NCBI GenBank assembly: GCA_963514005.1
Contig: OY740804.1
Coordinates: 5,704,001-5,768,000 of the forward strand
Direction of reading: 5' to 3'
Length of the DNA stretch: 64,000 nucleotides
Origin: Raja brachyura
Lineage: Eukaryota
Shown here: positions 919-52,317 of the stretch, piece by piece
Numbering within the stretch: position 1 is the first letter of the stretch
Layout of the letters: every line of letters starts with the position of its first letter
Notes under the pieces: model-generated
The model's input: the letters and a program-made list of their open reading frames with translations, nothing else
Database searches by the model: none
Told to the model about the DNA's origin: nothing
Made by a program: the position numbers and the translations under genes

Positions 919-937
919 ATTATGAAGCAAATAACAG
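919..937 (+). CDS. Gene 0: candidate 19-nt stalk micro-exon ((G)AT TAT GAA GCA AAT AAC AG = DYEANN(S)), phase 1 to 2
   Basis: Acceptor ccacttcaccaAG and donor AG|GTATAT. Phase fits a phase-1 Ig exon upstream and the phase-2 TM exon at 1006. Conserved at 17637-17655. The 5' boundary is uncertain: an upstream acceptor at ~871 gives stops in all frames. Confidence 0.4.
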
Positions 938-1005
938 GTATATGTTTCAAAGATAAACCGTCTCGTTTTCTCCCATTGATTCTGTTTCTCTTGCTCTTTG
1001 CCCAG

Positions 1006-1096
1006 TTACATCTCATGGAAAGAGGGGCGCTGGCTGTTCTTTCTCCCGCTTGTGATCTGGAGTATCTCAACCGCGGTGTTTACAAGAGGCTCTAAG
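1006..1096 (+). CDS. Gene 0: activating-type TM exon (YISWKEGRWLFFLPLVIWSISTAVFTRGSK); upstream exons lie before the window
   Basis: Long polypyrimidine tract ending cccAG, donor AAG|GTAGGT. Hydrophobic segment with charged K/E/R near its N-terminal part. Paralogous exon at 17724-17814. Confidence 0.75.
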
Positions 1097-1480
1097 GTAG
1101 GTTTTATTGTCATCGTGTTTATAAATTATAGGAGCAGAATTAGGCCATTCAGCATATCATATCTAATCCGCTCCAATCACGGCTGATCTGTCCTTCCCTC
1201 TAGATCCCATTCTCCTGCCTTCTCCCCACAACCAATGACATCCTATTTATCAAGAATATGAATATCTCCGCCTTAAAAATATAAATTCATGTGGATGGAT
1301 ACAAAATTGCTGGAGTCTCTCGGCGGAACAGGCTGCATCTCCTCTGCGATTTGGCTGGGCCTCCACAGCCTCCTGTGGCAATAAAATCCACACATCCAGA
1401 CAGCAGTGTGTTGGGAGTGGTCGGTTCAAATAAAGCGTCGTTCCCACTGTCAGTGAGTCTGATCACATTGTCTTTTGCAG

Positions 1481-1528
1481 AAACGCGATGAATCACAACC
1501 TTGCCACTCGACACACCAATTACAATGA
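1481..1528 (+). CDS. Gene 0: terminal exon, short cytoplasmic tail KRDESQPCHSTHQLQ*, no tyrosine motif
   Basis: Acceptor tcttttgcAG, phase 0 matching the TM donor, TGA at 1526-1528, AATAAA at 1758-1763. Paralog at 18256-18303. Confidence 0.7.
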   Translation, partial: KRDESQPCHSTHQLQ

Positions 1529-2109
1529 AGACACCTAGCTTGCACCACCTTATTGGTGACTAGCTTTGTCACCTATTCCAAGGTTTCTTTCGTCAGCTTC
1601 GAATTATTGATTTAACGTCTGCTTGGTTTCTGCTGCTCCAGAGTCATATTCTCTGTTAAACTATATTATATGCATTCGACTTCCTGGGGAAAAAAGTTTT
1701 TTCACAGATTAATGAATAATAATGCAACCGAACGCTTCTTAATCAATGGTTGTTGTCAATAAATGGTTTATCTAATTTGTTTTGTTTAGATTGCAACTTT
1801 AGTAATGAAGAACAGACTGCAATCAGAATGCTGGATAATCCTCGTGTTGCCAAATATTAAAAACGTTTAGGAAAGGCATTCAAATAATCTTTCAGACCAT
1901 GCCATCCCACAGAACAAAATTATGCAACGACATTGTTCTAACTATTAGCCTTATTTTTCTCTCCACAGACGCTGACTGACGCGCTAAGCACATCCAACAT
2001 CTGCATATCTCATTGCGAGAGGAAGGGACTGCAGATGCTGGTTTAAACTGAAGATAGACATAAATTGCTGGTGTAATTCAGCGTGACTGGCGGCATCTGT
2101 GGATAGATC

Positions 2110-2590
2110 AGGTAGGGGTAGGCAGACTGAGCGGCGATGTTCAGCGAAACGAATGCCGAGCCTGCGCTTGTTCTCGCTTCTCGGCGATAGTTTCCCTGGA
2201 TACCTCCGCTGAGTCCGCCCCATCCCCGATATCCCGGTCGCTAAACACTTTAACTCCCCCTTCCCATTCCCACACTGACATTTCTGCCCTGAGCATCCTC
2301 CATTGTCACAGTGAGTCCCAGCGCAAATTGGAGGAACGGCACCTCATATTTCGCTTGCGCAGCTTACATCCTAGCGGTGTGAACATTGACGTCTCTACAT
2401 TCAAGTAACCCTTGCTTTCCCTCTCAATCCCCCCCTCCTTCCCAGTTCTCCGATTAGTCTGACAGTCTCCGACTACATTTGATCTCTTATTACTTTGTTG
2501 TTACCTTCTCCCAGCTAACAATTATCTATTCTAGATTTTCCTTTGATCTGCATACCCTTTGTTCCGTTTTCACACCTTACAATTCTTTAT
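2110..2590 (+). mobile_element. Penelope-like element 3' fragment (GIY-YIG C-terminus) with a short inverted 5' piece
   Basis: Plus strand reads PVAKHFNS...HCHSESQRKLEERHLIFRLRSLHPSGVNID. Minus strand 2110-2180 reads KRRLGIRFAEHRRSV. Paralog at 21255-21735. Confidence 0.6.
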
Positions 2591-49503: not shown

Positions 49504-49723
49504 GGTTACACAAAAAGCTGGAGAAACTCAGCGGGTGCAGCAGCATCTAAGGAGTGAAGGAGATAGGCGACGTTTCGGGTCGAGACCCTTCTTCAGTCTG
49601 AAGAAGGGTCTCGACCCGAAACGTCGCCTATCTCCTTCACTCCTTAGATGCTGCTGCACCCGCTGAGTTTCTCCAGCTTTTTGTGTAACCCTCGATTCTC
49701 CAGCATCTGCAGTTCCTTCTTTA
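49504..49723. mobile_element. Young Penelope-pLTR-like insertion: perfect palindrome with hammerhead motif and 15-bp TSD
   Basis: 93-bp arms 49504-49596 and 49598-49690 are exact reverse complements. TSD ACACTTCATTTCCTT at 49489-49503 and 49724-49738. Confidence 0.8.
49598..49625 (+). ncRNA. Minimal hammerhead-ribozyme-like motif
   Basis: CTGAAGA-A-GGGTC-TC-GACCC-GAAA-C-GTC matches the CUGAnGA / stem II / GAAA / NUH core. Minimal HHRs are established in Penelope-like element pLTRs. Stem I is very short. Confidence 0.5.
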
Positions 49724-49860
49724 ACACTTCATTTCCTTTGCTGCACAATTCAAAAAAAATCATAAAAGGCGCCATATAAATGCTTGACTTTTGTTCTTTA
49801 CTGAAAGCCAAGAATCAATGATGAGTCGTATCTCACCCTTCCCTGTTCTCTGTCTGACAG

Positions 49861-49949
49861 GATCCCTTACATAATTGCATCTGGTGTCACCATGCTTCTC
49901 CTGATTCTCATCACTGCCTTCCTTTGGTACCAAAAGTGTAAAACCAAGG
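49861..49949 (+). CDS. Gene B TM exon, uncharged: IPYIIASGVTMLLLILITAFLWYQKCKTK
   Basis: ctgtctgacAG|...|GTGAGT, phase 2 to 1. About 22 hydrophobic residues followed by a basic stop-transfer segment. Confidence 0.85.
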
Positions 49950-51598
49950 GTGAGTTTCTGATTTCCTTTAAATAATTTCATAATACATATCTCAGTTCCT
50001 TGCAGAATATCAAGAGATTTTATCCTGTTGTAATCAACAAATACCCGGCAATAATGTATTAAAATATAGGAGGAAGCATAATTGATCAATAATGCTATCA
50101 CATTTGATGCTATCATGGTGACTCGGTGAAAAAACTGTTCTTCGAACAGCATTGCACAGAAACTGAGAGTGAAACGGCAGACATGGGTGAGAACTAAGAG
50201 GCCAGGTAGAAGTAAGATTTACATAGATACTCTCATCCTCTCAGCTGTTAGAATATGCTTTCTGTGATTAGCTGTTGTATTTCGAATCGGGTTAAGTCTT
50301 GTTTATTGTCACATGCACAAGCACGGTGAAGTACTGTTACAATGAAGATCACGCCTGCAGCCTCACAGGGACATAGACAACGTACAACATACCTGCCTCA
50401 CACAGAGGGAGGTGGGTATATGGCAGGAGCTGCCAGAGGAGGTAGTTGAGGTAGGGCAGGTCTAGCCTGGACAGGTAATCCAAGATGTAAACGCCCATGA
50501 ACTTGAAGCTGCCAACTATCTCCATCGCCGATGAAAATGTGAAAGTTCACTGAGCTGTTTTTCAGTCAGAGAGCATTAGTGGAAAGTAAAACAGTAAATA
50601 TTTCAGATCCAAGACCCATCATACAACAGGGAAAGAGGGAAAAGAGGAGGGATCCTCATTGAAAGATCAAATAGAGAAAGTCCTGGATAGGGCGGATGTA
50701 GGATGGATGTTTCCACTAGTGGGCAGTCCAGGACCAAAGATCATCACCTCAGAATTAAAGGACATTCCTTTAGGATGGAGAGGAGTAATAATTTATTTAG
50801 TCAGAGGGTGGTGAATCTGAGGAAATCTTTGCCACAAATTGCATTGGGCCTCATTCTGACAACAGAGACGACCCAGGACAGAAAGGTTAGTAGAGTTAGG
50901 GAATGGGAGGGAGAGTTAAACTGTTGATCAACCGGGAGATCAGGTAAGTTCAAGCAGCTTTAGGGTGGGATGGGTAGAGCACAGGGAATATGATCCATTC
51001 TGAACATTATGTACAGTAACCAGAACAACACGGCAGATTCTTGCTCTGTTCATGCAAATATACTGCAGTACTTTAGGGGTTCTCCTAAATATAAGGTCGT
51101 GGCAATAACACGTAGATGTTTGTGTGTTCGGAGGAACTGCAGATGGTGGTTTACACTGAAAATAAACATAAAATGCTTTATCAATTTAGCGGGTCGGGGG
51201 TGACATTTTGCCAGCAGCGCAACTGAAAATCATCAAATATAGTAGTTCTCAGCTTAGCTGGATAAAATAAACAGATTGAGAATATGAGTATGTGTGTATA
51301 TATAAACTGAACTTTTGTTTCTCTCCCGTTATGTACTATGTTTACATATTATGTTGTGCTGCAGCAAGTGAGAATGTCATTGTTCTATCTGGGACATATG
51401 ACAATAAAACACTCTTGATTCTTGACTCTTGAAAAGGAACAGGTAACGTTTTGAGTCGAGACCCTTCTTTAGGCTGAGAGTCAGAGGAAAGAAAAACAAG
51501 AGATATAGAAGGTACATGGAACAAATGAATGAAAATATATGAATGAATGATGTTTAAACCTGTTCCTGATATGGCTCTATCGACAACATATTTTCCAG

Positions 51599-51645
51599 AA
51601 TCCAATTGCAATACATCACACGGTGAAGAAAACAATGAAACCCAG
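51599..51645 (+). CDS. Gene B cytoplasmic exon 1: ESNCNTSHGEENNETQ
   Basis: ttttccAG|...CAG|GTAAAA. Phase 1 to 0 links the TM exon to the ITIM exon exactly. Confidence 0.7.
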
Positions 51646-52029
51646 GTAAAAATGTGAAATAAGAATTCTCTGAGTGATGAAGAATATATAATATTGAATT
51701 ATCTGTGTTTACACAGGCCATTTAGCAACACCAGTCCACTCCAGTTAAGAGATCCAGCGCAGAAGTAGGCCCTTCGGCTGACTGAGTCCACGCAGACTGG
51801 TGACCCCGCACACGAATTATACCAAACTAATTAACCTACAAACCTGTTGTTGGCGTTGTCAGGCAGCAACTCTACCATTGCTCTACATTACTGCGCTATC
51901 TTTGTGTTGTAAACAGCAGCAAATGCTTGTTCTGTACACTGAACAGTTTGAGACCTATTTTGCAATACACATCTGTTGAGGACCTATCAGATCCATTAGG
52001 TTGTAAAATTGCATTTTGTTATATTTCAG

Positions 52030-52317
52030 AAAATGGCAGTGTTGGAAGGGACCCACGTTGATGCAAATCTGCAGCAACTTGGAAACAACAAGGCAGCTGA
52101 CCATTTGGATAACAATGAAGGTGGAATCACGTATGCAGTGGTGAAATGTCAAAGGAAGTCGAGATCAAGGCACCATGTGACTGACAACGCTGTTGTCTAC
52201 GCAGATGTCAATTTTCAAAGCAACTGCCCAAAGGGCAATCGGAAACCCCACTCTACTGGGACTCCAGAGAACCTTAAGTTAACTTATGCCTCTGTTGTTT
52301 TTAGGAGAGATCTTTAA
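52030..52317 (+). CDS. Gene B terminal exon with three ITIMs (ITYAVV, VVYADV, LTYASV)
   Basis: atatttcAG acceptor, phase 0, TAA at 52315-52317. All three motifs fit [ILVS]xYxx[LV]. Confidence 0.85.
   Translation, partial: KMAVLEGTHVDANLQQLGNNKAADHLDNNEGGITYAVVKCQRKSRSRHHVTDNAVVYADVNFQSNCPKGNRKPHSTGTPENLKLTYASVVFRRDL

Follow-up and report, generated by a model that had tools for sequence, protein, structure and literature searches.

Disabled genes within a tandem MDIR-type receptor cluster of the skate Raja brachyura

We analyzed a 64-kb window of the genome of the skate Raja brachyura (C24:5,704,001-5,768,000; feature coordinates are window positions unless prefixed C24). Self-comparison and reading resolved it into the 3' end of one receptor gene (gene 0) and two whole genes (A and B), all on the plus strand and embedded among remains of long interspersed nuclear element (LINE)-type retrotransposons (RVT_1 matches). 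Very probably, the window genes are three disabled members of a tandemly arranged set of skate MDIR genes, the family being likely paired activating and inhibitory leukocyte receptors. With all exons included, no frame open from leader to tail was found in any of the three window genes, versus nine neighboring models that translate without a premature stop, four of the activating type and five with immunoreceptor tyrosine-based inhibitory motifs (ITIMs). The window genes are new members of a known skate family, and in this stretch they are mostly pseudogenes.

Assignment to the MDIR family

When the third V exon of gene B was compared with longer proteins, 112 of 155 candidates matched, nearly all from cartilaginous fish and the best from skates, with the named proteins MDIR3, MDIR5, and MDIR2 among them. 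The V, C2, transmembrane (TM), and tail exons are 72 to 90% identical per exon to those of clearnose skate MDIR3 (the ITIM type) or MDIR5 (the type with a W-K-V-G-R-W TM), which bears out the earlier note on this stretch, made from the letters alone, in its proposal of CD300/MDIR-like receptors in a probable cartilaginous fish, the host being a batoid. Window V domains are 70 to 86% identical to V domains of MDIR2, MDIR3, and MDIR5, and their V-set E values (1e-12 to 1e-14) are far beyond chance. MDIR5 ends in a W-K-V-G-R-W TM and a 15-amino-acid (aa) tail, as do genes 0 and A, and MDIR3 ends in a TM and ITIM tail as in gene B; an RW-type TM is carried by 36 of the 112 homologues, from skates, rays, and sharks. 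The database comparison of V and C2 domains that the earlier note had proposed matched MDIR2, MDIR3, and MDIR5. Among PDB entries, CD300 scored best per single V domain (72.5 bits versus 61.5 bits for pIgR D1, pIgR ranking first only by summed domains) and FCRL5 was the best match for C2. The window V exons contain Y-W-C-x6-C, the CD300-type extra cysteine pair; a passage of a preprint (bioRxiv 2022.04.21.489081) gives a V domain with an extra C-x6/7-C pair as a CD300 motif. Skate MDIRs are described in a section of PMC3031540 as multigene activating and inhibitory receptors resembling CD300, TREM, and pIgR, with Cannon et al. 2006 cited there as the paper on the family.

An exon kit with two signaling ends and exchanged ectodomains

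Exon-by-exon annotation covered C24:4.79-5.97 Mb, and the window sits inside an MDIR array of approximately 1.1 Mb (C24:4.82-5.91 Mb). Of 97 candidates scored in a search for V exons, 71 matched; 67 lie on C24 at 4.82 to 6.10 Mb, 45 of them close. Four distant V-type matches lie outside the array, at C11:39.8-40.0 Mb and C47:7.35 Mb. Interleaved with the array at C24:4.82-5.47 Mb (L105-L108, L067, L089-L102, L044-L049, and L057) are CD300/pIgR-like V exons of more distant relationship, at least 17 in number, which fall into several subfamilies and are about 30 to 40% identical to MDIR V. With a custom V profile, no V exon was detected in the 200 kb to the left of the cluster, and two broken V exons were detected to its right.

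The array contains an exon kit with two kinds of 3' cassette, ectodomain exchange between them, and numerous lesions. Across the array the models have two to six Ig exons, that is, a modular V plus C2/I-set ectodomain of variable number; neighbor g3, with 501 aa, has the V-C2-V-C2 layout of MDIR5. Exchangeable V and C2 ectodomain exons, all of phase 1, precede a 49-nucleotide (nt) stalk exon and then one of two cassettes: an MDIR5-type TM (W-K-V-G-R-W) with a 15-aa, Tyr-free tail, or an MDIR3-type uncharged TM with a tail that bears ITIM or immunoreceptor tyrosine-based switch motif (ITSM) consensus sequences. Thirteen MDIR5-type TM exons were found in the array, four of them within open models (g3, g7, gC, and g21); five more diverged RW-type TM exons, also in the array region, stand outside this count. 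Five of the six MDIR3-type TM exons are within open models (g4, g6, g10, g22, and g23), g10 being counted as open only minus its deleted first V exon.

The two classes do not form separate clades, because the activating or inhibitory label is no more clustered on the trees than in shuffles. The label changes 10 times on the V tree, versus 11.5 to 11.9 in shuffles, and 9 to 10 times on the C2 tree, versus 9.0 to 9.2; the trees cover 18 genes, with 35 of the 36 V exons and 27 of the 29 C2 exons once truncated ones are excluded. The activating-type gene g24, which itself has a 1-nt frameshift in C2, and the ITIM gene g23 have in common a 10.2-kb block at 97.5% identity with one V exon identical, and near the stalk exon 25 of 28 informative sites place g24 with the activating genes. 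Across four pairs of genes from opposite classes, unbroken homology fades out within a few hundred bases past the stalk exon. Such comparisons show the two classes exchanging ectodomain sequence by recombination. Homogenization of ligand domains in the same pattern is reported for other paired receptors in a portion of PMC3210942.

Pooled pairwise dN/dS (the ratio of nonsynonymous to synonymous divergence) over 12 distal V exons of intact genes was 1.7 for the N-terminal strand and FG region, 0.7 to 0.8 for the complementarity-determining region 1 (CDR1) and C-C' regions, and 0.5 for the framework, and over five proximal V exons it was 0.26; the pooled pairs are nonindependent, and the values are descriptive rather than a formal test. 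The pattern hints that distal V domains may meet variable ligands.

The paired system proposed in the earlier note holds in the wider cluster, which backs the two signaling-end classes better than the window does, but genes 0, A, and B are all damaged and make no working pair. Birth-and-death evolution is likewise backed better by the wider cluster than by the window. Turnover of the array likely proceeds through duplication, conversion, and decay, and copies of the activating type probably break more often. The promoters, leaders, and ectodomain exons, taken in the earlier note to be near-identical, show between genes A and B the ordinary paralogue similarity of this array: DNA identity is 95% over the 200 nt upstream of the ATG, 88% over 1 kb upstream, and 92% in the leader exon, while V exons are 83 to 90% identical (67 to 85% in amino acids) and the last C2 exons 83%.

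Lesions in genes 0, A, and B

The features named in the earlier note are present. W-K-x-G-R-W TM exons begin at 1006 and 17724, each with a tail of 15 aa that lacks Tyr; the TM at 49861 is uncharged and comes with three ITIMs. Leaders start at 5538 and 25641, and the V-set and C2 exons number five and three.

Gene 0 enters the window with its MDIR5-type TM exon (1006..1096; W-K-E-G-R-W, 90% identical to the MDIR5 TM) and tail exon (1481..1528; 15 aa without Tyr, 73% identical to the MDIR5 tail). Upstream of the window it has no ATG, frameshifts in V, C2, and stalk, and a stop after 73 codons, and it is a pseudogene through these lesions. The 19-nt mini-exon that the earlier note placed at 919..937 (plus strand) is probably intronic. 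Its peptide occurs in 0 of the 112 homologous proteins, and both of its splice sites are kept in 6 of the 11 activating-type genes examined and lost in the intact genes g3 and gC; the true stalk, as shown by MDIR5, is the 49-nt exon joining C2 to TM.

Gene A has the layout leader-V-C2-stalk-TM-tail. Its leader exon (5538..5586, with ATG and GT donor), V exon (6660..6974; V-set E value, 2.8e-14; 73 to 75% identical to MDIR3/5), and C2 exon (9334..9654; 75% identical to the last C2 of MDIR5) lead to a stalk exon (10824..10872) whose acceptor has changed from AG to AA; V and C2 are open. In the alignment of 14 stalk exons, AG is kept in 12 of the 13 others, and the acceptor of gene B was rebuilt by a deletion. 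In the W-K-x-G-R-W TM exon (17724..17814), the TGG (or TGC) of paralogues is replaced by an in-frame TAG at 17776-17778; a 15-aa, Tyr-free tail exon follows (18256..18303; 80% identical to the MDIR5 tail). All four splice routes modeled stop ahead of a full TM. Gene A would be unable to make a membrane receptor, being dead or, at most, the source of a secreted V-C2 protein.

The stalk-to-TM intron of gene A contains an 82-nt inverted repeat (95%) at 11993-12294 and tandem repeats at 15250-16190. The repeat region at about 12000-16500 has the look of what we presume to be a decayed DIRS-type element, and five frames within it matched no Pfam family. A block of approximately 680 nt, 80 to 88% alike among its copies, recurs upstream of V exons (5808-6459, 7982-8664, 25908-26617, and 36777-37490). 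The block is intronic and not a promoter, and it resembles a decayed short interspersed nuclear element. No V exon follows the copy at 7982, which suggests that internal exons were lost from gene A. LINE-type reverse transcriptase frames lie between and inside the genes, at 19432-20958 (minus strand), 26838-27317 (plus), and 30900-31595 (minus).

Gene B has the layout leader-V-V-V-C2-V-C2-stalk-TM-cyt1-cyt2. Its leader exon (25641..25689) is followed by the open V exons V1 (28257..28571), V2 (35615..35935, with a second in-frame acceptor at 35621), and V3 (37611..37922), an open first C2 exon (39570..39890; 77 to 80% identical to MDIR3/5, with FCRL5 as its best PDB match), and an open membrane-proximal V4 exon (41413..41730; 84 to 86% identical to MDIR3/5, with a second in-frame acceptor at 41419). 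The alignment of 15 C2 exons revealed deletions of 9 nt and 16 nt in the last C2 exon (44895..45190). The 16-nt deletion, at about 45019, shifts the frame, with a resulting stop at 45170. The stalk exon (47880..47913) is shortened by in-frame deletions of 6 nt and 9 nt. The uncharged TM exon (49861..49949; 72% identical to the MDIR3 TM) is open, and the paralogue alignment gave no frameshift at its start; it is followed by the first cytoplasmic exon (51599..51645) and the last exon (52030..52317; 78% identical to the MDIR3 tail), which has three ITIM-consensus motifs, ITYAVV, VVYADV, and LTYASV. In place of this LTYASV, the final motif of intact ITIM genes is TIYASV or SIYASV; gene B also gains four residues through the loss of 1 nt at the usual stop. 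If the last C2 exon is skipped, gene B reads as an open ITIM receptor of 697 aa; unless it is skipped, the gene as modeled is dead. Independent contigs from two samples span the stalk deletions without a gap, and the contigs of runs X1 and X2 are identical across the TM exon. These contigs (four runs) cross introns, with much repeat sequence, and no listed piece spans the 16-nt deletion.

Downstream of gene B, an orphan MDIR leader exon lies at 58312..58369 (plus strand). We rejected it as the leader of the next gene because its donor is degraded; the true leader is outside the window, and gC, the next gene, an intact activating type, has its own at C24:5,771,559.

Two ITIM genes of the wider array have unusual tails: an in-frame deletion in g4 (L074, C24:5,019,955-5,020,228) removes the consensus of the first ITIM, and g6 has an extra membrane-proximal motif, LVYANL. 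In a third ITIM gene, g23, an Arg stands inside the otherwise uncharged TM (L030:4287-4375, C24:5,862,287), possibly making a dual-signal receptor or possibly a damaging change.

Predicted signaling partners

Residues W4, G7, R8, and W9 are invariant in 10 aligned TM exons, with Arg in 10 of 10 and a central Lys in none. According to part of PMC1440944, FcR-gamma is the partner of receptors with an N-terminal Arg at the outer end of the TM, and DAP12 that of receptors with a central Lys. Of the two adaptors that the earlier note had offered, the position of the Arg, at the outer TM end, points to FcR-gamma as the probable partner; with an N-terminal Arg as the basic residue instead of a central Lys, DAP12 is an unlikely one. 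Two zeta-family TM exons were found in the genome: one on the array's own contig (L117, C24:19.85 Mb) is FcR-gamma-like, with a TM Asp and FcR-gamma as its best match, and the other (L116, on C12) is CD3-zeta-like. A complex prediction that combined the TM exon of gC and two TM exons of the FcR-gamma-like kind scored 0.02 and was not used either way. In the proposed mechanism, Arg-type receptors would assemble with an FcR-gamma dimer and signal through its immunoreceptor tyrosine-based activation motif, while ITIM-type receptors would recruit SHP-1/2; the coupling of ITIMs to SHP phosphatases is well established.

The expectation that automated annotation could miss the TM exons is partly borne out. 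Many models end before the TM, and 3 of the 112 misframe the TM exon, but 36 carry an RW-type TM. A further database model from another skate, P0075, has a TRIM-type N-terminus fused to an MDIR C-terminus, probably as an artifact of annotation; nothing in the annotated C24 stretch matched the TRIM part.

Chromosomal location

Among non-Ig genes, those closest to the array are, to its left, AMP deaminase, GST, and AdoHcyase-family genes (from a scan of 148 of 474 candidate frames) and, to its right, G-alpha and CCD48-family genes (from 148 of 400 frames). Farther away, C24 carries PFKFB-, SARG/C1orf116-, and Pre-PUA-family genes at 0.97 to 1.57 Mb and NFYA at 7.02 Mb, with the orthology of these markers set by Pfam family only. 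In mammals the PIGR group lies between C1orf116 and IL10/EIF2D. The markers of that interval stand at 1.05 and 1.57 Mb and the array at 4.82 to 5.91 Mb, so that the array is not at the pIgR/FCMR/FCAMR position. The custom V profile found no V exon in 200 kb beside NFYA. Human CD300 is flanked by Tweety (TTYH2) and EBP50 (SLC9A3R1) families, which are on C21 and C23 here and not on C24. Searches for the TBK1_CCD1 and Nore1-SARAH families gave no C24 match, and an IL10 family search gave no match and was uninformative. The array is on the chromosome with the PIGR and TREM neighborhoods, at the exact site of neither, and not at the CD300 site, taking human gene order as the reference.

Weighing the alternatives

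Genes 0, A, and B might be a working activating/inhibitory set whose lesions are assembly errors or belong to one rare haplotype, a reading that we consider improbable. All V exons of the window and two of its three C2 exons are open with canonical splice sites, and exon skipping would leave gene B with its 697-aa frame. Set against this, gene 0 has four independent lesions, the two substitutions in gene A are unlike indel error, and the stalk deletions of gene B are reproduced in contigs from two samples, so that the decay is genuine at least in part. Other observations weigh against our own reading of damaged copies from a likely paired family. Homologous proteins and splice signals are the basis of the predicted exon junctions. 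The C2 exons of gene 0 and g24 have single-base frameshifts in short runs that could be assembly errors, and the 16-nt deletion of gene B and both gene A substitutions could be specific to one haplotype. Private nonsynonymous and synonymous counts in Ig exons fail to separate broken from intact genes and had no power to date lesions. Broken copies are commoner in the activating type (open, 4 of 13 versus 5 of 6 for the ITIM type; Fisher P = 0.057), a weak excess that falls to P = 0.32 if g10 is taken as damaged. MDIR5 was reportedly not classed as activating in the original MDIR description.

It is conceivable, though doubtful, that gene A and similar copies are secreted decoys and not dead, their stalk exon being lost and C2 spliced to the TM exon out of frame. 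Such a direct splice enters another frame, whose stop comes 16 residues on and 41 nt ahead of the last junction; nonsense-mediated decay spares stops that close to the last junction, so the transcript would escape it. Gene A then gives a 244-aa model. Stalk exons are also missing from g12, g14, g15, and g25, and the alternative-frame peptide closes three of the 112 models (P0022, P0033, and P0045), which come from two other skate species, but g14 and g15 carry other lesions and the three models are predictions. Among 10 TM exons, private amino-acid changes are most numerous in gene A (six nonsynonymous, one synonymous) and g25 (eight and one), while the Ig exons of these two genes are open. 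The alternative frame, however, closes at the same place in 11 of 11 genes examined, intact ones included, and may for that reason be a by-product. We tentatively suggest that stalk-exon loss or skipping could turn an activating receptor into a third MDIR output, a secreted V-C2 decoy; gene A would have converted recently, and g25 earlier and in a form common to skates. If so, one exon kit would yield FcR-gamma-coupled, ITIM, and soluble receptors. We think it very unlikely that the array consists of skate orthologues of pIgR or of IgM/IgA Fc receptors serving immunoglobulin transport or binding and not paired signaling. NCBI names many of the homologues polymeric immunoglobulin receptor-like, pIgR tops the PDB list for the V exon, and C24 also bears families that flank PIGR in mammals. 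The lead of pIgR comes from the domain sum, CD300 outscoring it per single domain; C2 domains are interleaved; there are two signaling cassettes; and the array lies more than 3 Mb from the C1orf116-like gene, beside which the custom V profile detected no V exon in 200 kb of the approximately 520-kb interval.

Relation to known receptor systems

The finding as stated in the earlier note is not surprising, since the family and its two signaling classes were already known. A genomic picture of the MDIR array was not found in the literature searched, a scope that did not include the founding MDIR paper. What is useful is an approximately 1.1-Mb cartilaginous-fish array with recent exchange of ectodomains between activating and ITIM genes and many dead copies, together with a TM of likely FcR-gamma coupling that is conserved in 36 of 112 homologues. 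Intact genes suited to experiments are g3, g7, gC, and g21 and, of the ITIM type, g4, g6, g22, and g23; the three in the window are unsuited. The presence of PIGR- and TREM-flanking families on the array's chromosome bears on the site of origin of V receptors of the CD300, TREM, and pIgR types.

The closest relatives are clearnose skate MDIR5 (P0042) and MDIR3 (P0018), which have in common with the array the leader, V, two C2 types, stalk, and both TM/tail cassettes. MDIR5 agrees exactly with neighbor g3 in layout and length, whereas MDIR3 is V-V-C2-V-C2 and gene B is V-V-V-C2-V-C2, and the window copies are damaged. Mammalian CD300 (CMRF35-like) receptors likewise have the extra C-x6-C pair and combine activating and ITIM forms in one cluster, but they are single V receptors, whereas the array genes are multidomain, with C2 domains and an N-terminal TM Arg. 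The tandem V domains of pIgR, FCMR, and FCAMR are related to those of the array, whose chromosome bears the mammalian flanking-gene families, but the array differs in its C2 domains, paired signaling tails, and a nonsyntenic position in the part examined. Xenopus XFL, mammalian PIR/LILR, GPVI, and FcalphaRI resemble MDIRs in their modular Ig exons and an N-terminal TM Arg tied to FcR-gamma, and differ from them in that MDIRs have V domains and the TM motif W-K-V-G-R-W, not NxxR. For the Xenopus FcR-like genes, part of PMC2413239 describes the shuffling of domains and evolution by birth-and-death, the same pattern as in this array.

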